Source: Candidatus Heimdallarchaeum aukensis (GTDB lineage: Archaea > Asgardarchaeota > Heimdallarchaeia > Heimdallarchaeales > Heimdallarchaeaceae). Taken from it: DNA of 64,000 nucleotides. The DNA lies in contig CP084166.1 in NCBI GenBank assembly GCA_021513695.1, forward strand, positions 192,001 to 256,000. Reading direction: 5' to 3'. The position numbers and the translations under genes are program-made. The notes below the pieces were generated by a model. That model did not search any database. It was not told the origin of the DNA and worked only from the letters and a program-made list of their open reading frames with translations. This document shows positions 14,521-48,990 of the stretch, piece by piece (positions within the stretch are counted from its first letter, which is position 1; the number at the start of each line of letters is the position of its first letter).

Positions 14521-14830
14521 CCTTTTTTTTCAAAGAACAATCTGAAAGAAATGAAGAATTAAAGAAGATGTAAGAGTTGCTACAGTTGTTATAAGCGACA
14601 AACTATAGTACAATAGAATATATAAATTAATAATTCTAGTTATGTAAGTTTTAAAAGTAATTTTTGTTCCAGTTTATTTTTAATTTTTAATATAAATTAT
14701 GTAATACTCAAAACTATGTTTTTGTCTTATCTAAATAATATATCAAACACTTTCTAACTACAGATAAAGAATTTGGCCGACATAATTTGTTTAACAGTAA
14801 TATTCACTTTCAATGCACCCTCTCTGTCGC

Positions 14831-27152: not shown

Positions 27153-27160
27153 TTTTATAT
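27153..27160 (+). promoter_or_regulatory. TATA-like box (TTTTATAT) with purine-rich upstream BRE-like GGCGAAAG for the hydrogenase operon
   Basis: Ends 22 nt before ATG 27183 (MKTYKL...). This argues that 27183, not the track start 27159, is the real leaderless start. Confidence 0.4.
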
Positions 27161-27182
27161 GTGTTGTGTCTCACACATTAAA

Positions 27183-29086: not shown

Positions 29087-29087
29087 G

Positions 29088-29879: not shown

Positions 29880-31159
29880 GTAAGGATATTAATGTAAAAG
29901 TTCTCTCTCGTGTTGAGGGCGATGGAGGAATAAAAGTATATGTGAAGAACAATAAAGTGGAACAAGTGCTAGTTGATATTTTTGAAGGACCACGAATGAT
30001 CGAAGCTTTAGTAAGAGGAAAAACTTTTCAGGAAAACGTTTCTCTCGTATCAAGGATTTGTGCAATTTGTACAGTTTCACATCGTTATGCTTCAATCAAA
30101 GCAATAGAGAAAGCTCTGAAGGTTGAAGTTCCTGAGAAGATACAATTGTTAAGAAAACTTCTACATTTAGCTGAATATATAGAATCTCATATTTTACATG
30201 TTTACTTCTTAGCCCTTCCTGATTTCTTTAGGAAACCTAGTGCTATCGCTTTACTTCCTACACATAAAGAAACTGTTGTAGAAGCAATAACATTGAAGAA
30301 GTACGGAACAGAATTAATGAAATTGTTAATGGGGAGAAAGATTCATGGAGAAAATCCACAAGTAGGCGGTTTTGGAAGAATACCAACTAATAAAGAACTA
30401 GATGAATTTGCTGAAAAAGCAAAAGAATATATTCCTCAACTTGCTGCATTTATCGATGTGTTAGCTTCACTTGAAATACCAGATTATTGCGAGAGAGAAA
30501 CAACATTTATGTGTTGTAATCCTCCAAACAATGAATTTGGATTTGAAGGAGACACTATTCTTATTTCTACTGGAGAGGAATATCCTGTTGAAGAATACAA
30601 GAAACTAACAAATGAGCGAGTTGTTCCTCATTCATATGCTAAAAGATCAAGATACAAAGATAAACCATTCACCGTTGGAGCACTAGCAAGACTTATTTTA
30701 ATTGGTGATAGACTAACAGGATTAGCTAAAGAAAAATTTGAGAATTACTATAATGAAAAATGGAAAGTTAATCCATTATACAATAACTTAGCTCAAGCAA
30801 TAGAAGCTCTCTGGTCATTTGAACAGATTCCAGAACTAGTAGAAAAAATAAAGTCTCTTCCTGACTCAGAAATCGTTGAAGTGAAAAACCTTAACGGAAA
30901 AGCAACTGCAGCTGTTGAAGCTCCTAGAGGTATACTCTATCACACCTATGAAATTAAGGATGGAAAGATGGTCAGCGCTGACATTATTACACCAACTGCT
31001 CAATTCCTTGATGATGTTGAAGAGTACATTAGAGTTGCAGCAGAGAAGCTAATTGCCGAGAAAAACGAAGAAACCGAGTTACATTTAGAAATGATTGCTA
31101 GAGCTTATGATCCTTGTATCTCTTGCAGTTGCCACATGGTAAAACTAATTGAAGAATAA
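29876..31159 (+). CDS. hydA: [NiFe]-hydrogenase large (alpha) subunit
   Basis: N-terminal SRICAICTVSH (RxCxxCxxxH) and C-terminal DPCISCSCH (DPCxxCxxH) Ni-Fe ligand motifs. 427 aa, the size of group 3 enzymes. ATGA overlap with hydD. Confidence 0.9.
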   Translation: MSKDINVKVLSRVEGDGGIKVYVKNNKVEQVLVDIFEGPRMIEALVRGKTFQENVSLVSRICAICTVSHRYASIKAIEKALKVEVPEKIQLLRKLLHLAEYIESHILHVYFLALPDFFRKPSAIALLPTHKETVVEAITLKKYGTELMKLLMGRKIHGENPQVGGFGRIPTNKELDEFAEKAKEYIPQLAAFIDVLASLEIPDYCERETTFMCCNPPNNEFGFEGDTILISTGEEYPVEEYKKLTNERVVPHSYAKRSRYKDKPFTVGALARLILIGDRLTGLAKEKFENYYNEKWKVNPLYNNLAQAIEALWSFEQIPELVEKIKSLPDSEIVEVKNLNGKATAAVEAPRGILYHTYEIKDGKMVSADIITPTAQFLDDVEEYIRVAAEKLIAEKNEETELHLEMIARAYDPCISCSCHMVKLIEE

Positions 31160-31170
31160 AAGTGTGGTAA

Positions 31171-31650
31171 TTGACAGAAGAAAATTCAAACCCTTTTTCT
31201 TTTTCTTGTTTTACAAAACCAGAACACACTGCTTTTCTTTGTTTTGGAAATTTAGATAGAAGTGATGACGCTATAGGTCTTCTTATAGCTCGAGATTTAA
31301 AAAACCTTTTTCCACACGTTTTTAGTGAAGAATTCGACGACCCCATTGGCGAACTACTAATGATTCTTGAAGATGAAAGTATAGAGTGCATAACTGTAAT
31401 TGATGCATGTGATCTAAAAGCTGAAAATGGAAGTGTAATTGTATCTTCTAATATTAAAGTTGCAGAAAGTCGTTTGAGTACACATACTATACCTATAAAG
31501 CAATTGATAGAACTGATCCACAACGAAGGAAAAGAATTTGTTTTTATTGGTGTTCAAGTTTATAATGTAGAATTTATGGGAGAAATGAGTGAAGAAGTAT
31601 TAAAAGCTAAAGAAAAAATCCTTTCTTGGTTTGTTAAAGAAAATCAATGA
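31171..31650 (+). CDS. Hydrogenase maturation endopeptidase (HycI/HoxW family)
   Basis: LCFGNLDRSDDAIGLLIA matches the GNxxxxDDGxG motif. Lies immediately downstream of the large subunit. TTG start. Confidence 0.7.
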   Translation: MTEENSNPFSFSCFTKPEHTAFLCFGNLDRSDDAIGLLIARDLKNLFPHVFSEEFDDPIGELLMILEDESIECITVIDACDLKAENGSVIVSSNIKVAESRLSTHTIPIKQLIELIHNEGKEFVFIGVQVYNVEFMGEMSEEVLKAKEKILSWFVKENQ

Positions 31651-32980
31651 GTTCTCTCATTTTTGAATAAGCATCTATTCCTTTTCTTGTAATTGAATAA
31701 TATTTTTTGTTTTTCCCTTTTATTTTTGAAGAAATCAGATTCTTTTCTTCAAGCTCATTGAGATGTTGGTATATTGATTGAAGCGATTTTCTTTTTCCTA
31801 GAGCTTTCCAGATAGCGTAACCGTGATTTGCTTTCTTTCTGGAAATCAGATCCAATATTTCAAACTTTGTTGTAGATTTTTCAGAAAGACCCCATACTGC
31901 TTTTTTAATTCCTCTTAATTTAGAAGCAAATATGTTTAACGCATTCAAGCCTGACCCAGAAAGAAGAGCAACTGTAGAATCGACGTTGATTCCTTCATTT
32001 TCTAATAATTGATTAGCAGCAACAACAACAGAAGCTGAAGCAGGTTCAATAAATAAGCCTTCTTTTTTTGCTAAAAGAAGGGCTTGATCTATCATTTTTT
32101 CTCCCTCTATTTCAATTTCTTTTCCTTTAGTTTTTAGAAGAATATCGCCGATTTTTTGAGAAAGTGTCTGAGGTGTAGGAATCTTTAGAGATTCTGCATA
32201 AAAGTCTAAATCTTCTTGTTTCAAAGACACAGCATAAAATGAGGGGATTTTTTCTATCCAACCAGATGCTAAAGCATCTTCAAAACCCCTATATATAGAA
32301 TAGAAAAGAGAGCCAGAACCTTTTGGAATAATAATATTTTCAATTGTTTCAGATAAGTGAGCGATTTCTAAACCTATAGTTTTCTGACCTTCAACAGTCA
32401 AAATATTGTCAGATGAAGCGAAAAAAACTCCACCCTTTTGTAGTTCTCTCCCCTTCTCAATTGCTTCTTCAGTAGTAGAACCATGTTCGACTACTTTACT
32501 TCCATAAACTTTCATCTGTTCAATTTTTGATAATTCTAAATTCGAAGGTACAATGTTAGTGAGTTCTAAACCTGCTAATGCAGAGTAAGCTGATAAACTT
32601 ATGCCTAAAGAACCAGAACTAGAGCACACCAGTTTAGAAATAGAGGAAGAAGAAAGATAAGAAGCAATAAGTGAAGATGCACGGTCTCTGAATGATCCAG
32701 TTGGATTTCTAAATTCAAGTTTTAGTTTTAATCCTTTTAGTGATGAAATGTTGTTAATTAATAAAATAGGTGTATTTCCTTCAGACAATGTATAAACCTT
32801 CTCTAGTGAAGGTAAAAAAGGACTGAATGACCATATATTTGATATTTTTATCTTACTTTTTTCAGGTCCTTGAATAGGGTCTATGTTTTGGATAGAACCA
32901 CAAAAAGGGCAAAGAAGATCAAAATTAATAGATAATGTATCTTTCTTACATTTGATACAATACGGTTTTTTCTTCCACAT
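31634..32980 (-). CDS. Zn-ribbon + threonine-synthase-like fold-type II PLP domain (PLP lysine replaced) + C-terminal PadR-type wHTH
   Basis: CIKC-x14-CPFC; EGNTPIL; FRNPTGSFRDRAS, where family members have NPTGSFKDRG (codon AGA at 32687..32689, verified on DNA); SSSGSLG in place of SSGNxG; C-terminal GYAIWKALGKRKSLQSIYQHLNELEEKNLISSKIKGKNKKYYSITRKGIDAY. Confidence 0.75.
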   Translation of the reverse strand: MWKKKPYCIKCKKDTLSINFDLLCPFCGSIQNIDPIQGPEKSKIKISNIWSFSPFLPSLEKVYTLSEGNTPILLINNISSLKGLKLKLEFRNPTGSFRDRASSLIASYLSSSSISKLVCSSSGSLGISLSAYSALAGLELTNIVPSNLELSKIEQMKVYGSKVVEHGSTTEEAIEKGRELQKGGVFFASSDNILTVEGQKTIGLEIAHLSETIENIIIPKGSGSLFYSIYRGFEDALASGWIEKIPSFYAVSLKQEDLDFYAESLKIPTPQTLSQKIGDILLKTKGKEIEIEGEKMIDQALLLAKKEGLFIEPASASVVVAANQLLENEGINVDSTVALLSGSGLNALNIFASKLRGIKKAVWGLSEKSTTKFEILDLISRKKANHGYAIWKALGKRKSLQSIYQHLNELEEKNLISSKIKGKNKKYYSITRKGIDAYSKMRELIDFL

Positions 32981-35161: not shown

Positions 35162-36112
35162 TTACTTTGTTAGAAACTCAAGTTTCTCGATATTAATAAA
35201 ACCAAAACTCACTAGATTTGAAAATAAAGAGAGAAAATAGGGGAAAGAAATAATTAATTCTTCATTCTTAAAAATCTCATAAATATCGTAAATCGTATGA
35301 TTAATATTTCCACAGCATTCTTTTAGCATTTTTATGAAAAGTTTGTAAACTTTAACTGGTGTCATCGGGAAAATCTCATCAAAATTTTTTTCGAATATAT
35401 CAATATTTGTTTTGTAACTGTGTGGAATAGCGATTCTAGATTGTAATAACAAATCCAACTCTAGCAATGAAATATCATCAGGGGGATTTTCAATAATTCT
35501 ATCAATGTAAGCAGGGATAAAAGCTAGTGAAAAATTGTCTAAATAAACAAGCTGTTCTATTAAATCGTTAATTTTCTTAATCCACAGTTGAGCTATTTTA
35601 GTATTTAGTGATGAATTGATGCAGATCTTAGTTTCTATGAAGTTGAGAATAGAGTATTCAACAATTTCATTGCACTGTTTATCAGTATTATTGGAATTCT
35701 CTTCAAGATAGTATATTTCTTCTCTTAATTTGTCTATTATCTTAAGAGAGTATAGGTTTACTCCTCCGTAATCAATCGTTGGGGTTAATATTTGCTGATT
35801 ATATTTTGAAATTGATGGTATTGGAATCCCGAATTCTACATCTTGTTCTCCTATTATTGAAGGTGTTTTATCAATATCCGTACGCAAAAGAACATGAGAT
35901 CTAACTGAATTGTTAGTGTCTATAAAGAGTTTTGTAGCTCTTAATGAGCTATCTCCACACTCATGTACATCTACAAGTTCAAAGATATCTTTACCTTCGT
36001 TCAAAAAAGGTAAAATCGTCTTTGGAATGAAAATTATTCTTTGTTTTTGACATGCTGTACATAAATACTCTATTGAAACTCGAGATTCAGCTCTTATTGT
36101 CAATTTCTTCAA
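35162..36112 (-). CDS. Unknown-function protein, CxxC...HxC N-terminal module; paralogue of 48127..48990
   Basis: IEYLCTACQKQRIIFIPK...DIFELVDVHECG...LFIDTNNSVRS...GIPIPS aligns by eye with IEYQCNICLKQRIMGLPE...LMDIIDVHKCK...LHVDSDLNVRT...GLPLPS of the other gene. Both have helical C-terminal halves ending in a wHTH-like LxxLVxxGxINI. Confidence 0.6.
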   Translation of the reverse strand: MKKLTIRAESRVSIEYLCTACQKQRIIFIPKTILPFLNEGKDIFELVDVHECGDSSLRATKLFIDTNNSVRSHVLLRTDIDKTPSIIGEQDVEFGIPIPSISKYNQQILTPTIDYGGVNLYSLKIIDKLREEIYYLEENSNNTDKQCNEIVEYSILNFIETKICINSSLNTKIAQLWIKKINDLIEQLVYLDNFSLAFIPAYIDRIIENPPDDISLLELDLLLQSRIAIPHSYKTNIDIFEKNFDEIFPMTPVKVYKLFIKMLKECCGNINHTIYDIYEIFKNEELIISFPYFLSLFSNLVSFGFINIEKLEFLTK

Positions 36113-36507
36113 TAAAAAGTATACTTAATTATTTATATATTTATACATACGGTTTTTCTTTCTACTCGATGTGAAGAGAAATACTTGTTGTATGTAATTT
36201 ACAGAAAATGAGAACTTAAGTTTCAATGAACATATGACCATTTTCTAGCCAAAAAAGACCTGAAAGAAAGTCAGTGTTTTGAAAATAAAAAGATAAAAAT
36301 TTATTTGAAAACAATTTTATTAAATAGAACCTTTGTCAAACAGTTTCAAAGTAAATAGAAGAATGTTTAGTATAGTTTTCTTTTTTAGTTTAAAAGATTT
36401 AAAAAGGGAGTTTATAGTTTAAGAAAAAAACATTTATTCTTTTAATTGAATATTGTTAGAGTAGATAAGTTTTAATAGAATAAAGGTGAATTATATTAAG
36501 TAAACCA

Positions 36508-37092
36508 GTGGTACAAATGAACTCATTGAATCAAAACATCTTTAAAATCGTACTCCTTGGAGAAGGAGCTGTAGGAAAAACCTCTTTAAAACGAACTTAT
36601 ATGGGTGAAGAATTCGTAGAAGGATATAAAATGACAGTAGGTGCTGATTTCGCAGTCAAGAAACTGGAGGTAGATTTCTACAAAATAACTTTGCAGATAT
36701 GGGATCTAGCAGGGCAACCTAGGTTTGATGCGGTAAGAGAGGCATACTATAGAGGAGCTAAAGGAGCTTTACTAGTTTTTGATATCTCTAGACCAGAAAC
36801 ATACGAAATACTACCTAAATGGCTAAATGAGTTAATAAAAAACAGTGGTGGACGAAAGGTACCAATAATTCTAATTGGAAATAAATCTGACTTGCGCGAA
36901 AAACATGATCAAACTGTTCCAATTAACTATGCTGAAGATTATGCTGAAAAGCTAACAATGTGGTCTGGATATCACGTGTCTTACGTTGAAACAAGTGCAA
37001 AAACGGGAGAAAATGTAGAAAAAGCCTTTAGTGAATTAGCTCTTCAACTTGTACGTAATTTAGAAAAATTAAAAGTTGAACTAGGGATATAA
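36508..37092 (+). CDS. Rab/Ras-like small GTPase
   Basis: G1 GEGAVGKTS, switch I TVGADF, G3 WDLAGQPRF, YYRGAKGALLVFD, G4 GNKSDL, G5 ETSAKTGENV; collinear with Rab proteins. No C-terminal Cys. Start is GTG 36508 or ATG 36517. A TATA-like TTTAATAG sits at 36471..36478. Confidence 0.9.
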   Translation: MVQMNSLNQNIFKIVLLGEGAVGKTSLKRTYMGEEFVEGYKMTVGADFAVKKLEVDFYKITLQIWDLAGQPRFDAVREAYYRGAKGALLVFDISRPETYEILPKWLNELIKNSGGRKVPIILIGNKSDLREKHDQTVPINYAEDYAEKLTMWSGYHVSYVETSAKTGENVEKAFSELALQLVRNLEKLKVELGI

Positions 37093-37096
37093 AAAA

Positions 37097-37867
37097 TTAC
37101 TTTCTAAAATATGGTATTTTTACATAAGGTAATTTAATAATAAATTTGTCTTTTGAATAAACAATTATTCCACCAAGTCCTTTAACACAATGTTCGATAA
37201 AATCTTGTTCTATTGACTTTACTTTTTCTCTTTTACCTAAAGTTTCAACCAATTTAAACTTATCATAAAGATTAATTTTAAATACAAAATCCAGCATGTT
37301 CTGCTCATTACTGTATATAATTATAATCTCTGAATTTTTTTGTTGTTGCAATAAGGATTGAAACATAAGATATTCAAATAGGATATCGAGATTTTCATCT
37401 TTAACTATACATAAATCAGCAGAACCTTCAGGAAAAATAATGTCTGGAGATTGTTTAGTATAATGAGTGAGAAGATAGTGAGAAGTTAATTCTTTTATGA
37501 ACTCATGCAAGTTAACAAATGTCTTTTTGTACAATCTTCTAGATAATAACGTTATCAACTGTCTAGTAAATTTAATTTTAAAAATACTCTCTTCTAAAAG
37601 TAGAAGTGATTCATTATTCTCAAAACTTCCTTCTTTCATTGCTGATAAAATACTTAAATTATATACTGTATGGAGAAGATTTCCCATGTCATGGGTTAAA
37701 ATTTCAACTATTTTTGTTGTTCTTTGGTTTTCAGTCTCTATTTCTCGAGTCTTAATTTTTAGATTTTTACTTAACTGATAATTCCAAAGAAATAGAGATA
37801 TGATTAATATAAGTACTAAAGCGAATATAGAGACTACAGCGATTAGAAAAATTGCATAGCTATTCAA
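37097..37867 (-). CDS. Membrane-anchored histidine-kinase-like protein with degenerate ATP-binding boxes
   Basis: One N-terminal TM (FLIAVVSIFALVLILIISLFLW). H-box-like ILTHDMGNLLHTV. The C-terminal alpha/beta region has GLGG (G2-like), but I see no clear N-box Asn or DxGxG. Its stop lies 4 nt from the GTPase stop (convergent). Confidence 0.5.
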   Translation of the reverse strand: MNSYAIFLIAVVSIFALVLILIISLFLWNYQLSKNLKIKTREIETENQRTTKIVEILTHDMGNLLHTVYNLSILSAMKEGSFENNESLLLLEESIFKIKFTRQLITLLSRRLYKKTFVNLHEFIKELTSHYLLTHYTKQSPDIIFPEGSADLCIVKDENLDILFEYLMFQSLLQQQKNSEIIIIYSNEQNMLDFVFKINLYDKFKLVETLGKREKVKSIEQDFIEHCVKGLGGIIVYSKDKFIIKLPYVKIPYFRK

Positions 37868-37953
37868 GAATCTTCATTAATGTCTACATTTTATTACTTA
37901 TATTTTTTTTTAATTAGATAATGTGATGAAAAATAAAGAAAATAAAAAACGCT

Positions 37954-39330
37954 TTACCCTGAAACTGTAATATTGGCTATTGAAACAGCAGGAGCATCTA
38001 AAGGCCAAGGTGATTGTAGTACATCATCACCAATTGAAATAAAGTTTTCAAAGACTTGGTAATAGTTTCCTGCAATGCTTACAGATCTTAAAGGTAATGT
38101 ACGTTCTCCTTTTTCAATTAGAAAAGCGTTGTTTGAAGTTATACTGAAATCTCCTGTAATTACATTTGCTGTGAATAGTCCTATTGGTGTCTCTTCAATA
38201 TAGATTCCTTTATCTATTTCTGCTATCTGTTCTTCGAGGTTTTTCTTTACTGGTTCAACTACGAGTTTTCTAGGAGAAACACTTGGGATATTTTCGAAAG
38301 CAATTCCTCCCATCATACCTCCTCTGCTTGCATTAGCTGTTGTTTCTGTATTTGCAGCTTTAGCATACATTCTATCAAAGAGGAAAGTTTTCAAAATTCC
38401 TTTTTCGATGATTGAAGTTTTACCTACTGGGCTTCCTTCTCCGTCAATTGCTACTGTACTTTGACTTTCAGGTATTTGTCCGTCGTCAATTAAGTTGAAC
38501 CTTTCATCAGCAATCTTTTTACCTAGCTTGTCTCCTAAAGGATTCCTTTTTTCCACATATGCAGCTCCAGAGAGTGATTGCATAAATGGAACAGTAAGAA
38601 ATGCTGAAGAAGTATAAGGATGAAGTACAATAGGAAGTTTTTCACTCACATTAAAGGGTTTTGAACCTAAATGCTGAAAACCTTTTTCTACTGCTTTTTG
38701 ACCTAGTTCACTAATATCTTCATTCTTTCTACTAAGGACAAATTCAGATGCAGTTTTCCTATCTCCTTCTTTCATTACAACTGCATACGCTGATCCTCCA
38801 AAGACAGTAGATAAAGTAGAAACTAAACATCCTTCAGTAGTTCCAATAGCGTATCCTCTTACTACTTTTTCGACGTTTACAGATACACCTATGATTCTTT
38901 GATCATTTTTATCAACATTGTAAAGTAGTTCTGAAATTTTGTCTGCTAATTTCTCAGGAGTTAAATGTAAAACTTCATGGTCGAGAATACCATCTTTAGA
39001 TTGTTTACTTTCACTTACAAAACTTTCAAAAAGAGGATTTTTTGGGCTAGCTTTAGCAATAGCATAAGCTTTTCTTAAAGCTTCCTTGATTGATTTTTCA
39101 GAAAAACCAGTACAAGAGGAGAAACCTAGTTGTTTTCCTATTGCAACTCGAATTCCTACCCCCTGAACTACACCATCTCTACTGTCTACTTTACCTTTGT
39201 TTTCGCTTAAACTGGTCTCTAACGAATTATAAACAAAAGCTTCAGCAGACGGAATGTTAAGATCTCTAGCATATTTAATCGTAGTATCGGCAATATTCAA
39301 TATTTTTTCTCGTATTTCATTCAGTTCCAT
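37954..39330 (-). CDS. pmbA: PmbA/TldE-family protein (partner of the TldD metalloprotease)
   Basis: TldD/PmbA-family architecture, 458 aa, no HExxxH. Its ATG overlaps the tldD stop (TAATG). Confidence 0.8.
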   Translation of the reverse strand: MELNEIREKILNIADTTIKYARDLNIPSAEAFVYNSLETSLSENKGKVDSRDGVVQGVGIRVAIGKQLGFSSCTGFSEKSIKEALRKAYAIAKASPKNPLFESFVSESKQSKDGILDHEVLHLTPEKLADKISELLYNVDKNDQRIIGVSVNVEKVVRGYAIGTTEGCLVSTLSTVFGGSAYAVVMKEGDRKTASEFVLSRKNEDISELGQKAVEKGFQHLGSKPFNVSEKLPIVLHPYTSSAFLTVPFMQSLSGAAYVEKRNPLGDKLGKKIADERFNLIDDGQIPESQSTVAIDGEGSPVGKTSIIEKGILKTFLFDRMYAKAANTETTANASRGGMMGGIAFENIPSVSPRKLVVEPVKKNLEEQIAEIDKGIYIEETPIGLFTANVITGDFSITSNNAFLIEKGERTLPLRSVSIAGNYYQVFENFISIGDDVLQSPWPLDAPAVSIANITVSG

Positions 39331-40781
39331 TATTTTGCACCTCCAACTAAAACTTCATCTACAAGTAACTCTGCACCCCCAAGTCCAACAGGTAATGGAA
39401 ATTGTCCACCTTTACCACATCCACCAAAATAACCAGTCATAATGTTGAAATCTTTGGTTACTCCTTGAACTTGTTTGATTAATTCTAAGATATTTCCTGA
39501 AAGTGATGCATCTCTTACAGCATACTTTATCTCTCCATTTTCAACCCAATAACCTCTATTGCAATTGAATAGAAAGTTTCCATCTAAACCCACTTGACCA
39601 CCTGATGAAGAAACTGCATAAAAACCATCTTTAAGCTGTTCTAGAGCTTCCTCTAGACTTAAGTCTCCAGGAGCAAAGTAAGTATTTTTCATTCGTGGGA
39701 TAGGTGGATACATAAAGGTGATAGCTCTTGAATTTCCTGTTGGTTCAGCATTCATCTTTTTAGCTGTTCCTCTGTTATGTAAGTATCCTTTCAATACTCC
39801 TTTCTCTAAAAGAACAGTTTTGTCAGTTTTAATTCCTTGGTCATCATAAGGAAGCCACAGACCATTTGTTTCTCTTGGGATTGTTCCTTCATCGATAATT
39901 GTTGCCATTTCAGTACCTAAAACTTCGCCTATTTTATCAGATAATGGAGACATTCCAGTTACAACAAAATCACTTTCAGATAAATGTCCAAAGGATTCGT
40001 GAGCCAATACTCCTCCTAATCTCCATCCAATAAGGGCTTTCTGTTTTCCCGCTTTAATTGGCTTTGCTTCAGTTTGCTCTTTGCAATATTTTCCAGCATT
40101 GGTTCCAATTGTTTCAGGAAGATATTTCTCTTTTTCAAAAACTTCTAAACCAAGTGAAGAACCAATTCCATCAATACCCATAGCTCTTTTTCCTTCAATC
40201 ATGGATATAGCTTGTATTCGAAGGTCAACTATCAAAGGTTGCCAGAAGATTTCACTTTCTTCAGAATTCACAAAATATTTGTCTCCATATAGTTCTCCGT
40301 ATAACCCTGTTGTACTACTCGGTTGAATGTGATTTTCAATAGCTTTTACTCCCCGTTTTAACATGGATAATTTTTCATCAAACTCTACATTCTTAGGGTG
40401 CTTCTTTACCTCTGTAAATTGTTTATCAACAATAGGATTCTGTGTTTCAAATTCCATTTTGACTTTATTTCTAGGAGCTGTTGCTTTAGCTATCTTGACT
40501 GCATTTTCAACTGTCTGAAGAATACTTTCCCAGTTTCTCTCTGGAGTGAAAGAAAAACCAGGAGAACCATCGAAATAAGCCATTATTCCAAAACCTTTTC
40601 TTAATTTAGTAGAAGCCTCTCTAATTCTTTCGTTGAGCAGATTAACTGTCATTAAGCTCATATCATCGTATCTAGCCTCAACAAAATCTGCTCCTAAATC
40701 TAATCCTTTATTTACTGCTTTATGTAGTAAATCAAAAATATATTCGTCTATAGCCTTCATCTCGAAAACAACATTGCTCAA
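39330..40781 (-). CDS. tldD: TldD-family metalloprotease
   Basis: AHESFGHLSE (HExxxH), the Gly-rich C-terminus GGCGKGGQFPLPVGLGG, and 483 aa. Confidence 0.85.
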   Translation of the reverse strand: MSNVVFEMKAIDEYIFDLLHKAVNKGLDLGADFVEARYDDMSLMTVNLLNERIREASTKLRKGFGIMAYFDGSPGFSFTPERNWESILQTVENAVKIAKATAPRNKVKMEFETQNPIVDKQFTEVKKHPKNVEFDEKLSMLKRGVKAIENHIQPSSTTGLYGELYGDKYFVNSEESEIFWQPLIVDLRIQAISMIEGKRAMGIDGIGSSLGLEVFEKEKYLPETIGTNAGKYCKEQTEAKPIKAGKQKALIGWRLGGVLAHESFGHLSESDFVVTGMSPLSDKIGEVLGTEMATIIDEGTIPRETNGLWLPYDDQGIKTDKTVLLEKGVLKGYLHNRGTAKKMNAEPTGNSRAITFMYPPIPRMKNTYFAPGDLSLEEALEQLKDGFYAVSSSGGQVGLDGNFLFNCNRGYWVENGEIKYAVRDASLSGNILELIKQVQGVTKDFNIMTGYFGGCGKGGQFPLPVGLGGAELLVDEVLVGGAK

Positions 40782-40885
40782 GTATTAATAAATCTATACT
40801 TTCACTTTGAGCTAAATCATTTCACCCTTTGGTTAAAAATCTTTTTTTAACCGTTTTTCTTGATCTGATAAAGGTAAAGATAATT

Positions 40886-42922
40886 TTACTCAAAATAAAC
40901 TTCTTTGATCTTTGTATCAATATATTCTTTTATTTCTTCATATTCCAATATATCTTCATGAGGATACTCTAATAGCTTTTTTTCAATCAAGACGGCTATT
41001 TCTTCAGTCTTTTTCTTTAGTGCATACGAAAAACGGTCTACGAATAAAGCAATTGTAAATTCACTTTTTCCTAATAAAAGCATTATATATTCAGAGTGTT
41101 CCAAAATTCTTAGCTCTCCTTTCTTTAGTTTTAGAGTTTTGCTTATATTTTTTATAGCATTAATCATTCCAACAATAAGCAACTCATCAGAATGGAAAAT
41201 ATCTCCATAAGAGTAACTATAGAAAGGAACATTTTCAACAATTAATAAGAAATGAAAAAGATGGAAGTTATTTCTACTGCTTCTAATCTCTGAAGTGAGT
41301 AATCCCTTTGTAGTGTATTGTTTTATTAGATTATCTATTTCTAAAGAAAAATCCATAGAAAAGGGAGTTTGTTCGAATTCTGAGTTTGCTTTTGCCTTCT
41401 TTAGTAGTTGATAGATTTGTCTAATATTCTCTTCTTTATAATTTAAATTATGCTTTTTACATATTATTTCCACTCTTTTTAGCAAATCTTCTGAAAGGTG
41501 AAGTTTGTTTGTATATATGTAAACTGTTGCTAATAGCAACATATAATTTACTAATTGATAAAAGGCATTAAGTTCTTTCAATAGAATAATTATTTCTTGA
41601 GAATATAACTCGATTTCCTCTAATATTTTTTGCTTATTAATTTTATTAGTCTCGATTTTAAACATTACAAGATATAATTCAATCAAGTAAAGAAGAGCAT
41701 TTAATGCTTGGGGAAAAAGGTTCAATTCTCTGGCATAATTTATTCCTTTTAGTAAATAATCTCTGGATGAATAGTAATTCATTTTATAAAATTCAAAAAT
41801 GCCTTTAGTTGTAATATAGGTAGTATAATAAGCGTTAAGTTTAGGCTCATCTAATTTAAATGTCTTTGAATATTTTTCTAAATACAATCCTGCTTTATCA
41901 AAATTGTTAGATATAGCGTATGTCTCTGCTGCTAAAGGATAAATATAATCAAGAGCAATATTGTATTGTTCACTAATTTTAATAGCCTGTTCTAGAAATT
42001 TAAGGGATTCAGGAATGTTATTTAACAGTCTGTAAGCATAGATTATTTCTGCATTTATCATGGCTATATTTCTTAATTCTTTCTTTTTTTCCATAAAAAT
42101 AAGAATGTTAAATAAGTGTTTTAAACCCTCTTTGAAAAATCCTTGTTTGAGCAAAACTACTGCATAATTTGCTTTAGCAACTATTTTTCCTCTTTCAATT
42201 TTTTCAGAACTGAATAATTTAATTGCCTCTGCATAGGCAACCTTACTTTCTATTATTGATCCAGAATAAAGAAGGCAATTTCCTTGCATATTTAGTAAAT
42301 ATGCGTGCAAGTAAACATCTGAAATATCATGTTTTAGGATTTTTTGTAATGCTTTCTCTGAAATGTAAATTCCTTTAATATATTGATGTTTCATGTAGTT
42401 GAACAAGGTTTCTGTATAAAGATACATTATTTCGTAAAATCTACAAAGTTTTTTATCTTTTTCAAATTCACTAACTTGGTCCAATATCTCTAATGCTTTA
42501 TTCAAATATTCTTCTGCTTGCTCAAGTTCGTTTATAACAGAATAGTATTCTACTACATGAAGAAAAAAATCAAAAAGATAGATAATTTGAGTATTGATTT
42601 TACCTTTATCCAGTTTTTCTATTATTTCTTCGATTTTTGGATAATCTCCTTGTATTGCTACAATACGCGAAAAAGAAGCAAAAATTTCAAAAGATTTAAA
42701 CTTCAGATAAAACTCTGATAATTTTTCTCTATCATCATAAATTAATAGAATTTTAGCAATTAAAGCTTGATAATCTGAAGGAACTGAAGAAGATAGAATT
42801 TCATCCCAATACTTTAGGATTGTATTGTAGAAATCAAAATAAGTGTTAAACAACTTTGGATGCATTTTTCCATGTAAGAAATCTTCTTCTAAAAACCTCT
42901 CATATCGCTTTATTTGCATCAT
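40886..42922 (-). CDS. TPR-repeat protein with C-terminal longin/roadblock-like domain (paralogue 1)
   Basis: 678 aa. LGN-like TPRs (LLNMQGNCLLYSGSIIESKVAYAEAIKLF ...). C-terminal about 128 aa (40889..41272): HLFHFLLIVENVPFYSYSY / DELLIVGMINAIKNISKTL / GELRILEHSEYIMLLLGKSEFTIALFVD / FSYALKKKTEEIAVLIEKKL, a beta-beta-alpha-beta-beta-beta-alpha pattern. Confidence 0.65.
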   Translation of the reverse strand: MMQIKRYERFLEEDFLHGKMHPKLFNTYFDFYNTILKYWDEILSSSVPSDYQALIAKILLIYDDREKLSEFYLKFKSFEIFASFSRIVAIQGDYPKIEEIIEKLDKGKINTQIIYLFDFFLHVVEYYSVINELEQAEEYLNKALEILDQVSEFEKDKKLCRFYEIMYLYTETLFNYMKHQYIKGIYISEKALQKILKHDISDVYLHAYLLNMQGNCLLYSGSIIESKVAYAEAIKLFSSEKIERGKIVAKANYAVVLLKQGFFKEGLKHLFNILIFMEKKKELRNIAMINAEIIYAYRLLNNIPESLKFLEQAIKISEQYNIALDYIYPLAAETYAISNNFDKAGLYLEKYSKTFKLDEPKLNAYYTTYITTKGIFEFYKMNYYSSRDYLLKGINYARELNLFPQALNALLYLIELYLVMFKIETNKINKQKILEEIELYSQEIIILLKELNAFYQLVNYMLLLATVYIYTNKLHLSEDLLKRVEIICKKHNLNYKEENIRQIYQLLKKAKANSEFEQTPFSMDFSLEIDNLIKQYTTKGLLTSEIRSSRNNFHLFHFLLIVENVPFYSYSYGDIFHSDELLIVGMINAIKNISKTLKLKKGELRILEHSEYIMLLLGKSEFTIALFVDRFSYALKKKTEEIAVLIEKKLLEYPHEDILEYEEIKEYIDTKIKEVYFE

Positions 42923-43046
42923 TTTATTTCATTATTACTTTATCATAGTATATCTCAAGAGTCGTTAAAAGTTTATCTGATTTTCAAAAATTGATTGATT
43001 CTCGGCGACTCAAAAATAATAAAATAGCTAGAGTTCAAAAGAATAA

Positions 43047-45095
43047 CTACTTTTCAAATATTTCAATTCTTAAATTATCTATTTCTTGTTTTATAGGAGT
43101 TAAAATCTTATTGGTAAAATAGTCAATCTGCAAAACTTCTGTTTGTTGCAATAAACTCTCAATTTTGTTAGCAAATTGAATCAAACGTTCTTTTACAGAA
43201 TAATAGAACTCATCAATGAAGAGAACAACTGAATATTTCTTTCGTTTTTCAATCATTACTATAAAATCAGTAAACTCGATAAGCTTAAAGATTCCATGTT
43301 TTTTTGTCAGAGAGTCACTGAACGATTCAATAGCTTTGAATAATCCAGATAGAAGAAGTTGTTTTTCTTCAATTTTTTCTCCTTTAAATTGATGTGAATA
43401 TAATGGTAAACCGTTAAAGTGAATAATTATTAGATTTATTAGGTGATCTTTGTTATATAAATTGAGGTTTACTTCTATGTTCCTAATTTCTGTAGAAGGT
43501 TTCTGTAATGTTTTTGTTATACTATTCAAACTGAATATTTGAAGAGCTTTATCATCTAACTTTTCAGGATTCTGTTCCATTTTTTTCAGTGTTTGCATTT
43601 CACGTAAAATTTCTTTAAGTTGAGTATTCATATTGTAGTTTTTACATAACTCTACAGTTAAAGAGTAAATATGGTTCGCAAGATCGAATTTCTCCTGAAG
43701 TGCATAAATCCTAGCTAAAAGTAATTGAAAATCTATTTTTAAGTAAATGTTGCTGTGTTTTCGTAATATTAGGGATATCTCTTCGCAAATTTCCTCTAAT
43801 TCACTTATAATTTCTTCAGAATACTGTATTTGTAATTTCTTAATCAAGTAAATTGAATGATATTTCAGTCCAGTTAGATAAAGGGGAAAATTTTTGATAC
43901 TTTTAGCTATTTCTATTCCTTTTTCCAGGAAAATAGATGCATTGTATAAATTTCCTCTTATTAATTCGTAATATCCCTTTAAAGAATAAAATGCACCATT
44001 ATGGAAACTGATGTTTTCTTTATCTTTTAAGATAATATTTTCAAATGTTTTCAAAAGTTTTTCAACAATATCAAATTTTTGAATTTGTATTGCGAACTCG
44101 ATTGATGATATTAATACTTCGTCGTCATAGACTAATCTTGTTTCTAAGAGTTTTATATTTTCTTTAAGATATTCTACTGCTTTTTCTGTTTTACCAATTT
44201 CTATTAGGCATTGCATAATCTCTCTATTTATTAAAGCTACATTTCTCAACTCATTGTTTTCAGAGAAAAATTCTTTGATTTTTATTAACTTAGGTAGAGC
44301 TTCTTTATGTTTTCCGAGTTTGATATCTAAAGAAGCTATATTTCCTTCTGTTACAATTTTTCCTCGATTATTATTCATTTCATTAAACAAATTAAATGAT
44401 TTATAGTAATTTGACTTCGATTGTTTAAGCAACCCTTTAAACATGTAAGCGTTACCTAGAGTGTTGTAAGTAACTGCTAAAAGAAATTCATCTGTTTTTT
44501 CAATATTTTCTAATATTTTTTTGGCTTCACTAAAGTAAAAAATAGCTTTATCTGACTCTCGATATCTAAAAACAGTGAAACCCAGAGTATAGAATAAATT
44601 TGCTTGAAGAAAAAGAAACAATTGACCTTCACTCTTATTTAAGAGAAGTTTGCATTGTGAAATTAGCTGAGAAGCTAATTCATTATTGAAAGTTGTAGCA
44701 AATATTTTTATTTCAGAGTTGTAGAAGTAAAATCTAGGAAAAATTGAAGATTTAGAAATAGATGCTAGATCAGTTTCTGCAATATATGTTTGTGCTTTAA
44801 TTAATCCTCTTTTTAATCGTAATATGTTGAGTAAAGGGCCTAAAGTTTCGATTGAATTATATTTTTTATAAAGAAATTCTAATTTATCATATTCTCCATA
44901 CATATTAAACAAATAACTAATTAAAAATTGAACATCAGGGGGTATGAAAATGTCTCTTATCTTTTTCCAATAATTTTGAACATTTCTGTAAAGATTAAAC
45001 TCTTTCACTTCTGTTATAGTTTTTAACTTTAGATATTTTTTTATCCAATTTTGATCATCAGAGTTTAATAACTGTAAATACCAATCCAAAACCAT
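43047..45095 (-). CDS. TPR-repeat protein with C-terminal longin/roadblock-like domain (paralogue 2)
   Basis: 682 aa. TYNTLGNAYMFKGLLKQSKSNYYKSFNLF-type TPRs. C-terminal (43050..43448): LINLIIIHFNGLPLYSHQF / KQLLLSGLFKAIESFSDSL / GIFKLIEFTDFIVMIEKRKKYSVVLFID / FYYSVKERLIQFANKIESLL. Starts 9 nt after the Grx-FTR gene stop. Confidence 0.65.
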   Translation of the reverse strand: MVLDWYLQLLNSDDQNWIKKYLKLKTITEVKEFNLYRNVQNYWKKIRDIFIPPDVQFLISYLFNMYGEYDKLEFLYKKYNSIETLGPLLNILRLKRGLIKAQTYIAETDLASISKSSIFPRFYFYNSEIKIFATTFNNELASQLISQCKLLLNKSEGQLFLFLQANLFYTLGFTVFRYRESDKAIFYFSEAKKILENIEKTDEFLLAVTYNTLGNAYMFKGLLKQSKSNYYKSFNLFNEMNNNRGKIVTEGNIASLDIKLGKHKEALPKLIKIKEFFSENNELRNVALINREIMQCLIEIGKTEKAVEYLKENIKLLETRLVYDDEVLISSIEFAIQIQKFDIVEKLLKTFENIILKDKENISFHNGAFYSLKGYYELIRGNLYNASIFLEKGIEIAKSIKNFPLYLTGLKYHSIYLIKKLQIQYSEEIISELEEICEEISLILRKHSNIYLKIDFQLLLARIYALQEKFDLANHIYSLTVELCKNYNMNTQLKEILREMQTLKKMEQNPEKLDDKALQIFSLNSITKTLQKPSTEIRNIEVNLNLYNKDHLINLIIIHFNGLPLYSHQFKGEKIEEKQLLLSGLFKAIESFSDSLTKKHGIFKLIEFTDFIVMIEKRKKYSVVLFIDEFYYSVKERLIQFANKIESLLQQTEVLQIDYFTNKILTPIKQEIDNLRIEIFEK

Positions 45096-45104
45096 ATTTT
45101 TCCC

Positions 45105-45800
45105 CTAAGTATATCTATCTTTAGGTCTCCTTTCTGGTATCATTTCAATTTCTTGATTTTTTGTGAAATCATAATCTTTCTTAAAGAATAGAGCACAATA
45201 GCATCTTCCATATTCATTGATATCTTCTTCTGCATAATCACAAGGACAACAAATATCTCTATCAAGCTGAATATTTTCGTTTGTATCTCGACAAGGACAA
45301 TTAAAATAACCTATTCTATTATAATTATCTTTTAGTCCTTGTATTAACATGTCTAAAGTTCCATCGTTATTTGGATGTAACTTCCAATTCTTCTTTTTAG
45401 CTATATTCTGAACATATTTCTTTACTTCTTCAAAAGTTTTTGACTTTTTACTTCTTCCAATACCATGAAAGAGTTTCTCCCATTTCTTTTTGTTAAATCC
45501 CATTTCATATTTTTCTCCGTCAATAACTACGAATGGAAAAGCTATAAACTCCAAATTAAAAGCATGTCTTATTTCTTTTTTGATCTCTTTTTTTTCATTA
45601 TAGTTTATTAGATCTATATCGATAAAATAGTAAGAAATTTTATTATCTTTTAGCCAATTTTTACTTTTTTTACACCATTGACATGTAGAGATAGCAAAGA
45701 GAAAAACTTCAAAATCAGTTGTTGAATCTTCAAATAGCTCTAAATTATAGTTTGGCAAACTCTTAATTTTTTTTGCTATCTTTAAGTTTAGTTTCTCCAT
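45105..45800 (-). CDS. Glutaredoxin/NrdH-like domain fused to a ferredoxin:thioredoxin reductase catalytic-subunit-like domain
   Basis: N-terminal VFLFAISTCQWCKKSKNWL (CxxC in a thioredoxin-fold context). C-terminal CPCR ... CCPC ... GRCYCALF corresponds to the FTR-c CPC / CPC / CHC cysteine pattern, with Tyr in place of His. Confidence 0.65.
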   Translation of the reverse strand: MEKLNLKIAKKIKSLPNYNLELFEDSTTDFEVFLFAISTCQWCKKSKNWLKDNKISYYFIDIDLINYNEKKEIKKEIRHAFNLEFIAFPFVVIDGEKYEMGFNKKKWEKLFHGIGRSKKSKTFEEVKKYVQNIAKKKNWKLHPNNDGTLDMLIQGLKDNYNRIGYFNCPCRDTNENIQLDRDICCPCDYAEEDINEYGRCYCALFFKKDYDFTKNQEIEMIPERRPKDRYT

Positions 45801-45875
45801 AGTATCACTTATTCGTCAATATTATACTAACTGTGTTGATTAATAATAAATGTTCTTCTACTATCAATCCAATAA

Positions 45876-46427
45876 TTATAAAGTATTTAAAAAGGCTATT
45901 TCATTGAAATTCTTTCTTGGAGGTCTATTTTTTTCAGAGTTTGCATCCTTTTCTGATAATACTTCAGTATAATTCTCATTATGTCTTCCCACTATAATTA
46001 ATGTAATAATTCTGTATTCTTGGGGAATATTCAATACATTTTTAGCTTCTTCTTCGTTAAACCCAGCTATTGGATGGGCAACAAGTCCCATTTCTGTTAA
46101 ACGTAGGATAATATTTGCTGTTGCCATTCCTGTATCAAAAAGATAGTATTCTCTTCCTTTAACTATACAATCTAAATCTGGTTTAGAGAAAACAGCAATT
46201 ACCATTGAAGCTTTTTTCGCCCAAGCATTTGCTTCAGATAAAGTAGAAAAGATTTTTTCCAGATTTTCTTTCCCGTAAACAAAGACAAATCTCCAAGGTT
46301 GTTTGTTAAAACAAGAAGGAGCTAAACTTGCTAATTCAACCAATTCCTTTATCATTTCTTCTTTTACTTCAAAGGGAAGTAATGATCTGTATGCTCTCCT
46401 TTTATTAACTATTTCATAAAAATTCAT
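45876..46427 (-). CDS. Nitroreductase-family flavoprotein
   Basis: FYEIVNKRRAYRS, PSCFNKQPWRF, and 183 aa. Its ATG directly abuts the bcp stop. Confidence 0.75.
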   Translation of the reverse strand: MNFYEIVNKRRAYRSLLPFEVKEEMIKELVELASLAPSCFNKQPWRFVFVYGKENLEKIFSTLSEANAWAKKASMVIAVFSKPDLDCIVKGREYYLFDTGMATANIILRLTEMGLVAHPIAGFNEEEAKNVLNIPQEYRIITLIIVGRHNENYTEVLSEKDANSEKNRPPRKNFNEIAFLNTL

Positions 46428-46904
46428 TTAATCACCTTTTATATTTAAAATTGTAGACAAAACATCCATAGAATGCTCTTTAACTTTTACTTTTTCCCAT
46501 ATCTTAGCAACTTTTCCTTCAGGAGAAATAAGGAAGGTCTTTCTAGCTGTACCAAAAAACTTCTTCGGTCCCATTTTCTTCTTAACCCAACAACCATAAG
46601 CTTCAATTATTTCATGGTTTTCATCGCTTAGTAAAATTACTTTTAGATCCTTTTTCTCTTCAAATTTCTTAAGTTTACTAATTGGGTCATTACTTATCCC
46701 AAAAATTATGGCATCTCTTTTCTTGAATTCTTCAATTTGTTCAGAGAATGTTTTTGCTTCAATTGTACATCCTGGAGTATTTGCTCTGGGGTAAAAATAA
46801 ACTACAACCCATTTTCCTAAATAGTCTTTTAGACAATGTTCTTTCCCATTTTGGTCCTTTAGACAAAAATCAATGGCTTTATCACCAACTTTTAAATTTG
46901 ACAT
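46428..46904 (-). CDS. bcp: Peroxiredoxin, Bcp type
   Basis: WVVVYFYPRANTPGCTIEAKTF (peroxidatic Cys motif PxxxTxxC), and 158 aa. Confidence 0.85.
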   Translation of the reverse strand: MSNLKVGDKAIDFCLKDQNGKEHCLKDYLGKWVVVYFYPRANTPGCTIEAKTFSEQIEEFKKRDAIIFGISNDPISKLKKFEEKKDLKVILLSDENHEIIEAYGCWVKKKMGPKKFFGTARKTFLISPEGKVAKIWEKVKVKEHSMDVLSTILNIKGD

Positions 46905-47006
46905 AATATCAAAGACTAGTTGTTTTTCAAATTATTTAAAAATGATGTTCTAACAAAAAAAATTTAGAAAGTTAGTTAAGAGAAAATTGAGAAAATTAAG
47001 AATTTT

Positions 47007-48023
47007 TTATCTGTGATATCCAACACCAATATCTTCTTTTACATCTAGATCAACAAAAATACATTCTTTCTTCTGTGGTACTGGATTAAGAGAATCTGCC
47101 ATCCAAAATTGATAATTTTTGAAGTTTGCAGCAGAAGCAACGTTTCCATCTTTATCCATTACCAAAATAGACAGAGTTCCTACATTAGGTTCCAAATTTT
47201 CAATCATTTTTATGGCATAAACAGCAGCTTCTTCTACATTTTTTCCTTTAGATAATTCATATACAGCTATTCTAGCGAGAGATAATCTGATGGCTATTTC
47301 TCCTACGCCTACACAAGCAGCTGCTCCATATCTGCTATCAGCATAATTCCCAGCACCAATTAAAGGAGAATCACCCGCTCTACCAGGAAACTTGAAAGAT
47401 AAACCACTAGTTGAAACTCCTGAGCAAATATTTCCATTAATATCTCGTGCAATAACATTGACTGTTCCATGTTTCTCTTTGGCATATTTTTCATACCAGG
47501 ACATTAAATCATTATTTTCGACCATTTTCTTGAAAGATTTAAAATATCTCTCTTTAAGTTTCATAGTTTTCTCGTTGTCGTAAGGATAAGTCTCGATCTT
47601 TTTCTTTTTTAAGAAATCATTGTATATAGCTTTGGCATTTTCTGTAAGTAATTCTGATTGAGGGAATCCAATAACATCTGCGAACAAATCAGCAAATTCC
47701 CCAACTAAAAGAACATGTGGGGTTAATTCTAATACTTTTCTTGCAATTGAAATGGGATTTTTGTGTTTTCTAACTCCTGCAACCGCTCCAGCTTTTAAGG
47801 TAGTTCCATCCATTATAGAGGCATCTAGTTCCACTTCACCTAGTAAATTGGCTAATCCTCCAATACCAACTGTCCAGTCATCCAAATTGTCTTCAACAAT
47901 CTTTATTGTCTCTTCTACAGCATCTATTGCCTTATTTCCTTGTAACAAAAGCTCAATCCCTTTAGGTAAACCAACATCAGAACGAATCGTTCCTGCAATA
48001 ACAGCTCTTTCCAATTTAATCAA
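47007..48023 (-). CDS. Ntn-hydrolase of the (glycosyl)asparaginase / isoaspartyl peptidase family
   Basis: AIDAVEE ... VGIGGLANLLGEVELDASIMDG ... HGTVNVIARDINGNICSGVSTSGLSFKFPGRAGDSPLIGAGNYAD (autoprocessing Thr in HGT|V, GDSP-x-GAG). TTG start in the track, so the N-terminus is uncertain. Confidence 0.8.
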   Translation of the reverse strand: MIKLERAVIAGTIRSDVGLPKGIELLLQGNKAIDAVEETIKIVEDNLDDWTVGIGGLANLLGEVELDASIMDGTTLKAGAVAGVRKHKNPISIARKVLELTPHVLLVGEFADLFADVIGFPQSELLTENAKAIYNDFLKKKKIETYPYDNEKTMKLKERYFKSFKKMVENNDLMSWYEKYAKEKHGTVNVIARDINGNICSGVSTSGLSFKFPGRAGDSPLIGAGNYADSRYGAAACVGVGEIAIRLSLARIAVYELSKGKNVEEAAVYAIKMIENLEPNVGTLSILVMDKDGNVASAANFKNYQFWMADSLNPVPQKKECIFVDLDVKEDIGVGYHR

Positions 48024-48126
48024 TTGAGAGTTCAGCTGGAATTAAAAAGATTTACTATTTGGAATCAGAAGATGAAGTCTTAAGCTATTTAATAGTAGAA
48101 AAACATGTGGATAAAGAAAAGAAAAA

Positions 48127-48990
48127 TTATTTTTTATCTACAAAATTTATGGTTAAGATATTAATTATACCTTTTTCAACTAAATTAGCTAAGATTGCGA
48201 TATATTCACTAAAAGAAAAATTATACTTTAGTTCATTGTATATTAGTAATATGTTGTTTTTATCATTGTTTTTACACTTTTCAATAATAGAAGCTAGATT
48301 TCGACTTTCAACAGTATCAAGGTCATTAAAAATCTCTCCAAATTCAGTGTCTTCTTTTATAGTTTGAGGAATTGAGCAAATACTATTTATTATTAATTCA
48401 AGAGCAAGTTTATCGCTCAAGTTCATCTCGTTCGTTACCTTATCATCTAAAAATTTTAGTACAAGTTCTAAAGCTTTGACATCAATATAGGTTGCTTTAG
48501 AGTAAGCTTCTTCAATTCCAGTTAACCATTTTTTAACTTGTTTTTTCTGAACTTCTTTTTCTGTTAATATTTGAATTTCAAGGAATTGGTCATCAATAAT
48601 TATTTTATCTAAGTCGTTTTTTTTAGTTTGATCAAAAACAAATATCTTATTTCTAATTTTATCGTTTATTTGGAAATAATCAATGTTTCTGATTCTAATA
48701 AGATGATCAGTAATGATTTCAATTTTCGATCTCTCTACTTTTTGAGGAGAAGGAAGAGGAAGTCCAGGAATACTAGATTCATCATTTTCCTTTTTTACTG
48801 GAATCTGTGTCCTTACATTTAAATCAGAATCCACATGAAGTAGAATAGCATTTTCCTTATTACCTTTGCATTTGTGAACATCAATAATATCCATTAAACC
48901 TCTCGTATCTACATTAAAATTTATATTTTCAGGAAGACCCATTATTCTTTGTTTTAAGCAGATGTTACATTGATATTCTATCTTCTTCAT
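48127..48990 (-). CDS. Unknown-function protein, CxxC...HxC N-terminal module; paralogue of 35162..36112
   Basis: See 35162..36112. 287 aa: MKKIEYQCNICLKQRIMGLPENINFNVDTRGLMDIIDVHKCKGN..., with C-terminal EYIAILANLVEKGIINILTINF. Confidence 0.6.
   Translation of the reverse strand: MKKIEYQCNICLKQRIMGLPENINFNVDTRGLMDIIDVHKCKGNKENAILLHVDSDLNVRTQIPVKKENDESSIPGLPLPSPQKVERSKIEIITDHLIRIRNIDYFQINDKIRNKIFVFDQTKKNDLDKIIIDDQFLEIQILTEKEVQKKQVKKWLTGIEEAYSKATYIDVKALELVLKFLDDKVTNEMNLSDKLALELIINSICSIPQTIKEDTEFGEIFNDLDTVESRNLASIIEKCKNNDKNNILLIYNELKYNFSFSEYIAILANLVEKGIINILTINFVDKK

Follow-up and report, generated by a model that had tools for sequence, protein, structure and literature searches.

A Heimdallarchaeia-restricted protein family with a predicted metal site and a winged helix that probably does not bind DNA

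Two minus-strand genes, here termed A and B, in a stretch of 64,000 nucleotides from Candidatus Heimdallarchaeum aukensis (contig CP084166.1, positions 192,001 to 256,000; hereafter the window, with a guanine-cytosine content of about 30%) belong, as judged from their sequences, to an undescribed family of proteins of about 300 residues that is restricted to the Heimdallarchaeia. The family probably has a conserved four-ligand metal site, most likely for structural zinc, together with a C-terminal winged helix that would serve protein rather than DNA binding. The reading that we favor, with a probability of about 0.4, is that of a zinc-stabilized adaptor or regulatory subunit working by protein-protein contacts, whose paralogues have specialized for different partners. 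An earlier note on this DNA had described the two open reading frames (ORFs) as paralogues by eye; its coordinates, strand assignments and quoted motifs are correct for both ORFs, and their paralogy is borne out by a BLASTP alignment that covers the whole of both proteins (E=6e-23, 25% identity). The product of B is 100% identical to H. aukensis protein K9W45_00935, and the contig measures 3.08 Mb.

Word-indexed searches returned 11 relatives for A and 4 for B, all of them unannotated and the named ones from the Heimdallarchaeaceae. A profile of 13 sequences, run against 1.84 billion representative proteins, yielded 93 matches at E<1e-3 (about 93 clusters at 50% identity), 35 of which reach E<1e-30. 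Nearly all are 290-335 residues long and share one architecture, and the named members (family proteins are cited here by P numbers and loci by L numbers) all come from the Heimdallarchaeia, be they assigned to the Heimdallarchaeaceae, to the Kariarchaeaceae or simply to a "Heimdallarchaeota archaeon". P0049, a eukaryote-like tandem-repeat protein of 4132 residues matched in 11 stretches, was discarded as spurious because repeats inflate the score. The earlier note had been unable to place the family, and profile searches lead to the same result: no model in Pfam, NCBIfam or PADLOC matches it consistently, the latter two giving zero matches, and a sequence search of the PDB returned no chain, even at E up to 10. 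A match of A to DUF7505 (PF24337) at 12.9 bits and E=0.088, below the 27-bit gathering threshold, is shared by none of the other 60 members of our family alignment and, being weak and confined to A, is ascribed to chance.

The case for a metal site is built on residue counts in this 61-sequence alignment, given in A numbering. H50, D65, R71 and P97 are present in 61/61 members; C18, C21 and Y16 in 60/61, the lone exception being truncated at its N terminus; D48, P99 and W177 in 60/61; E186 in 59/61; and R25 in 57/61. C52 is found in 42/61, and 17 of the 19 members that lack it carry His-Gly at A-positions 58-59, a pair that occurs in none of the 42 Cys52 members and that lies on the opposite side of the β3-β4 hairpin holding Cys52, seven residues ahead of the invariant D65. 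A set of four ligands (C18, C21, H50 and either C52 or H58, which are mutually exclusive) is retained in 59/61 members, the remaining two having no fourth ligand. Such a swap fits what is predicted for a genuine tetrahedral metal site and favors a real four-ligand site, which strengthens the case for the conserved Cys/His module first noticed in the two window copies.

An AlphaFold2 (AF2) model of A, built on a 13-sequence alignment, reached a predicted local distance difference test score (pLDDT) of 85.6 and a predicted template modeling score (pTM) of 0.84. Within residues 11-76 it shows strands at 11-17 and 24-30, a short helix, and strands at 43-52, 56-65 and 70-76; the loop joining β1 to β2 holds the CxxC, and β3 ends with the HxC. 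A linker with the PxP motif at its end follows (residues 81-102, pLDDT <50 both in the full-length model and in one of residues 1-192), and then five further strands and a long helix (171-187) within residues 105-187. Residues 193-316 are helical and close in a helix-helix-helix-hairpin arrangement with the fold of a winged helix. The separate model of residues 1-192 (pLDDT 75.6) weakly matches the profilin-like superfold and nothing else (Fuzzy at 5.9, roadblock at 5.0, and LAMTOR, profilin, GAF and MglB at 4-5), and a Foldseek search against the PDB gave no match at E<0.05. As modeled, the family combines in a new way a β-domain predicted to bind metal, an α/β domain remotely similar to roadblock/longin, and a winged helix, and its resemblance to known structures reaches fold level only.

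These features lead us to postulate a mechanism in which the β1-β2 hairpin (CxxC) and the β3-β4 hairpin (DxHxC, or DxH...HG in one clade) would together hold one metal ion, likely structural zinc, that staples the N-domain; contacts with partner proteins would be made by the α/β platform, the PxP motif of the linker and the acidic winged helix. The protein would act non-enzymatically and without binding DNA, and its paralogues probably serve different partners, often membrane proteins and peptidases. Several points weigh against this proposal. Metal binding is deduced from conservation, and the ligand swap is confined to a single clade of the neighbor-joining (NJ) tree; since the 17 His-Gly sequences are that one clade, the swap in effect amounts to one event in evolution, and the evidence is overstated by the Fisher p=3e-13 for the exclusivity of Cys52 and His-Gly. 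The conserved Asp, His, Arg and Tyr residues near the site could just as well belong to a pocket for catalysis or ligand binding. The genomic neighbors, in turn, are context only, none of them being proven as a partner, and several paralogues in varied contexts are also to be expected of a transcription factor family.

This last point bears on the first alternative, a one-component transcription regulator in which a metal- or redox-sensing N-domain and a GAF/profilin-like domain control DNA binding by the C-terminal winged helix, with neighboring genes as targets: for B, the cassette of peroxiredoxin (Prx), nitroreductase (NTR) and glutaredoxin/ferredoxin-thioredoxin reductase (Grx/FTR), for instance, and for A the divergent GTPase gene. 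Sensor domains of the GAF, IclR and CodY types are among the N-terminal structure matches, there are several paralogues per genome in differing local contexts, A is divergent from its neighbor, and a B-type gene remains beside the redox cassette in a more distant member of the Heimdallarchaeaceae (L020). The winged helix itself argues for the opposite. Family-wide, the net charge over its 66 C-terminal positions averages -3.1 and is positive in only 15% of the members, in proteins that are acidic as a whole (mean charge -6.3), and the helix at the recognition position (290-302) is hydrophobic, with a Lys+Arg frequency of at most 0.10 at positions 290-301; position 310, at the tip of the wing, is the only such position that is often basic (56%). 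The family hence does not show the basic or polar recognition helix and net-positive domain of winged-helix transcription factors. Its acidity and scarcity of basic residues make the DNA binding envisaged in the earlier note unlikely, and the domain, probably non-DNA-binding, is a better fit to protein-binding winged helices. Likewise, helix-turn-helix (HTH) and winged-helix Pfam models match 0/61 members, and operator-like palindromes sought in common between the A and B upstream regions amounted to AT-rich matches at chance level, none of them convincing. Taken together, we regard a transcription regulator as unlikely.

H. aukensis carries at least four paralogues (A, B, K9W45_01790 and K9W45_01815), so that the description of a two-member family is accurate within the window, where tblastn found no third copy, and fails for the genome. 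In the NJ tree, A falls together with P0016, P0006, K9W45_01790 and K9W45_01815, and B with P0020; their placement in separate subfamilies indicates old paralogues and no recent duplication. The suggestion that the pair brackets a functional module, or the trace of a segmental event, does not survive this analysis. Segmental duplication was rejected on account of the different subfamilies, the absence of long direct or inverted repeats flanking the A-B block, and a similarity between A and B at the DNA level that is limited to 41 nt encoding the conserved IEYxCxxCxKQRI motif. The framing of a 12-kb block by A and B is due to chance in gene order and does not mark a module; in a genome of 3 Mb, the presence of two paralogue pairs, the members of each no more than about 4-12 kb apart, hints at ancient local duplication without defining a module. 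The counterparts of K9W45_01815 and K9W45_01790 on a near-identical contig (L019; 2306-3163, minus strand, and 7340-8236, plus strand) are separated by about 4 kb, with ESCRT-II/ubiquitin-like genes, namely EAP30 (ESCRT-II), a UFC1-like E2 and JAB, at a distance of 5-8 kb. Two unannotated neighbors of this pair, of 229 and 318 residues, are kept beside the orthologue in L004 and L005; a 322-residue neighbor in L004 was considered as a hidden paralogue and rejected (hhalign probability 0.1%). The family gene of L030 is broken over two frames (381-674 and 607-1323, spanning 381-1323), owing to a frameshift or an assembly error, or because it is a pseudogene.

Table 1. Features of the window, with coordinates counted from its first nucleotide
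Feature	Position	Strand	Remarks
Gene A	35162..36112	-	316 aa, TTG start, A-type family member; homologues P0001-P0011
A, predicted metal-site β-domain (residues 8-78)	35879..36091	-	Five strands; also conserved Y16, R25, D48, D65, R71
A, putative ligand codons	C18 36059-36061; C21 36050-36052; H50 35963-35965; C52 35957-35959	-	
A, PxP linker (residues 79-104)	35801..35878	-	P97 35822-35824 (61/61); P99 35816-35818 (60/61)
A, α/β domain (residues 105-190)	35543..35800	-	Five strands and long helix; roadblock/longin/profilin-like; S154, W177, E186 conserved
A, acidic helical region and C-terminal winged helix (residues 191-316)	35165..35542	-	
Gene B (K9W45_00935)	48127..48990	-	287 aa, B-type family member
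B, putative ligand codons	C8 48967-48969; C11 48958-48960; H39 48874-48876; C41 48868-48870	-	
B, PxP motif (P78 and P80)	48751-48759	-	
Ras/Rab-like small GTPase	36508..37092	+	Divergent from A, 395 bp apart; Pfam Ras E=1e-48
"HK-like" ORF	37097-37867	-	N-terminal hydrophobic segment; conserved within this genus only (84% identity)
TPR1	40886-42922	-	Paralogue of TPR2, about 26% identity
TPR2	43047-45095	-	Paralogue of TPR1
B-side block (asparaginase_2, peroxiredoxin, nitroreductase, Grx-FTR, TPR2)	43047..48023	-	Context, not proven partner
Fused Grx and FTR-β domains	45105-45800	-	231 aa
HlyIII/PAQR membrane protein	53164-53802	-	Pfam E=3e-36
GH38 α-mannosidase-like protein	61292-63946	-	884 aa
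Presumed [NiFe]-hydrogenase cluster	27159-31650	+	Fer4, NAD-binding/Fe-S, small subunit, large subunit, HycI protease; assigned from size and from collinearity with L002
Presumed PALP-PadR fusion protein	31634-32980	-	By size and collinearity with L002

The genomic surroundings of family members (Table 1 for the window) were compared across genome and metagenome contigs. At about 12 A-like loci (L003/L010, on one contig, L007-L009, L012, L022-L026 and L028) we find a co-directional and tightly spaced run composed of a polytopic membrane zinc-ribbon protein of 553 residues, an HlyIII/PAQR protein (in most loci), the family gene and an M28 peptidase, and this run holds together even between loci whose membrane proteins share no more than 45% identity. 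The 553-residue protein (L007, 7583-9247; also L003, L008, L009, L022, L024 and L028) contains some 9-10 hydrophobic segments, and its zinc ribbon sits in a basic, cytosolic loop at the center; the protein is encoded directly upstream of A-like genes in diverged genomes and has no homologue in the window. In L030 it is still directly upstream, and a response-regulator/PAS/histidine-kinase gene takes the downstream place of the peptidase. HlyIII/PAQR homologues, the most recurrent neighbors after this protein, adjoin the family genes upstream and on the same strand in clade-S loci, and in L020 and L021 they lie in convergent orientation, flanked by the B-type gene and the asparaginase gene. Homologues of the GH38 protein of the window lie 7-10 kb from family genes in clade-S loci (L007-L009 and L012), which suggests remnant synteny with the B side of the window.

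On that side, L020 displays the order B-type gene, HlyIII, asparaginase_2, Prx, NTR, Grx and FTR, and TPR2, collinear with the window at identities of 36% for B, 77% for the asparaginase, 64% for Prx, 63% for NTR and 40% for TPR2. This collinearity indicates that the B side of the supposed bracket is conserved at the family level; the L020 contig stops short of the expected position of A. The Grx and FTR-β domains that are fused in the window are encoded in L020 by two overlapping genes (14093-14769; 110 and 126 residues). Elsewhere, one distant member (P0106; L013 and L014, 7696-15590) lies 60 bp downstream of cheB, after a methyl-accepting chemotaxis protein gene, and faces cheC-cheA-cheY in a chemotaxis cluster, a notable setting on a Heimdall-type contig; another family member adjoins a type I cas operon, and another sits amid housekeeping genes.

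On the A side, the arrangement of the divergent GTPase followed by the "HK-like" ORF, pmbA, tldD, TPR1 and TPR2 is shared by Ca. H. endolithica (L006) and a JGI contig (L002), the proteins of which are 82-95% identical to those of the window and thus place both loci in its genus, Heimdallarchaeum. Conservation of the Ras-family pairing in these three loci is an argument for a second alternative, that of a dedicated small-GTPase regulator or platform, be it a GTPase-activating protein (GAP), a guanine-nucleotide exchange factor (GEF) or a scaffold, with a roadblock/longin-like domain as in MglB, Ragulator or NPRL2/3 and the Rab-like GTPase as the client of A. Heimdallarchaeia have moreover been reported to encode GAP-type longins (PMC12290439). 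The association is nonetheless seen in Heimdallarchaeum only, and thus in 1 of about 10 contexts, no Ras-like gene being present within 8-10 kb in about nine other distinct contexts examined; the association with GTPase genes that the earlier note proposed as a test of its idea does not extend to the homologues in those contexts. In GAP longins of the FLCN/SMCR8/NPRL2 type, the β1-β2 loop of the longin domain carries a GP motif (PMC12290439), whereas in this family it carries the CxxC: the loop reads C-x-x-C-x-K-x-R, and no Gly-Pro is found there in A, B or the consensus. Longins of that type also have a catalytic arginine finger that faces the GTPase, and two Arg residues, R25 and R71, are conserved in our family. 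Given also that no Robl_LC7, Longin or Folliculin Pfam model matches, we hold a dedicated GTPase regulator to be quite unlikely.

The adjacent tetratricopeptide repeat (TPR) proteins lend no further weight to such a role. Their C-terminal domain, of about 140 residues and α/β type, is common to TPR proteins near family members (L001, 12505-14418; L009, 2740-4818; L020, 14840-16786), which are encoded 1.5-5 kb from these members in three lineages and are absent from the syntenic L007 and L008. The domain has no Pfam or PDB sequence match and no profile similarity to our family, a common domain having been rejected at an hhalign probability of 4.7%. The ORF named "HK-like" in the earlier note has no HisKA/HATPase Pfam match, and a PDB sequence search taken to E=10 gave no relative. 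Neither that label nor that of "TPR-longin" receives support from Pfam or PDB sequence comparisons, and both stand unconfirmed.

A third alternative takes the Cys2-His site and its variable fourth ligand for the catalytic or redox-labile center of a metalloenzyme or thiol redox switch, flanked by D48, D65, R25, R71 and Y16. Three invariant ligands with a replaceable fourth, the conservation of Asp and Arg residues of the same domain in 57-61 of the 61 members, the synteny of B with peroxiredoxin, nitroreductase and Grx-FTR, and the recurrence of peptidases nearby (M28, TldD/PmbA and asparaginase_2) are all congruent with this idea. Retention of the full ligand set in 59/61 is typical of structural zinc, however, no fold match to a hydrolase or oxidoreductase active site stands out, and the conserved charged residues may be mere structural salt bridges, all of which makes an enzymatic or redox function improbable. 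Finally, it is very doubtful that the family comprises Heimdallarchaeia-specific, zinc-stapled roadblock/longin derivatives with non-DNA-binding winged helices that act as membrane-proximal platforms or regulators of small GTPases or other switches (e.g. the Rab-like GTPase beside A), as an archaeal precursor or analogue of lysosome-type signaling scaffolds, even though the recurring polytopic membrane, PAQR/HlyIII and peptidase neighbors would fit a membrane-proximal platform.

With the Heimdallarchaeia counting among the nearest archaeal relatives of eukaryotes known so far, multi-copy protein families specific to this lineage are candidates for unexplored regulatory machinery. The well-predicted fold, near-invariant putative metal site and conserved linear motif make the present family a tractable biochemical target. 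Should it prove to be a GTPase or membrane-signaling adaptor, it would provide a new building block for models of the origin of eukaryotic trafficking and signaling scaffolds; should it be merely a lineage-specific structural protein, the main outcome of this work would be the removal of a false "GTPase module" lead.

Comparison with known systems helps to delimit the proposed zinc-stabilized adaptor. As in zinc ribbons and zinc knuckles, a CxxC knuckle in a β-hairpin would give two ligands; unlike in these, the second pair is an HxC at the end of a strand (or H...H across the β3-β4 hairpin) instead of a second knuckle, a five-stranded sheet houses the site, and no Pfam zinc-ribbon model matches consistently. 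The metalloregulators Fur, Zur and PerR present the reverse domain order, with no sequence similarity to the family, whose zinc site is predicted in an unrelated β-domain and whose winged helix is acidic and devoid of basic recognition residues. A conservon-like module (sensor kinase, roadblock, DUF742 and GTPase) is a poor parallel as well, for the "HK-like" ORF lacks HisKA/HATPase matches, Robl and DUF742 gave no matches, and the arrangement is limited to one genus. With respect to roadblock/LC7 and longin proteins (MglB, LAMTOR, the longin domains of VAMP7/Ykt6, AP sigma, TRAPP Bet5 and the Asgard roadblocks 7F8M/9JQ8), we obtain no sequence-profile match, Pfam Robl_LC7 (PF03259) matching 0/61 members at an E cutoff as loose as 10; the family does not clearly follow the canonical β-β-α-β-β-β-α-α order, and it adds an N-terminal β-domain, predicted to bind metal, and a PxP linker. 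NPRL2/NPRL3 (GATOR1) and other GTPase regulators that join a longin domain to a winged helix are longer (380-570 residues against about 300), and the family differs from them in having no GP motif, no PDB sequence similarity at E up to 10 and no conserved GTPase neighbor. If the α/β domain were nonetheless to be read as a zinc-stapled roadblock/longin derivative, regulators of the NPRL2/3 type would share with the family an architectural logic, by analogy.

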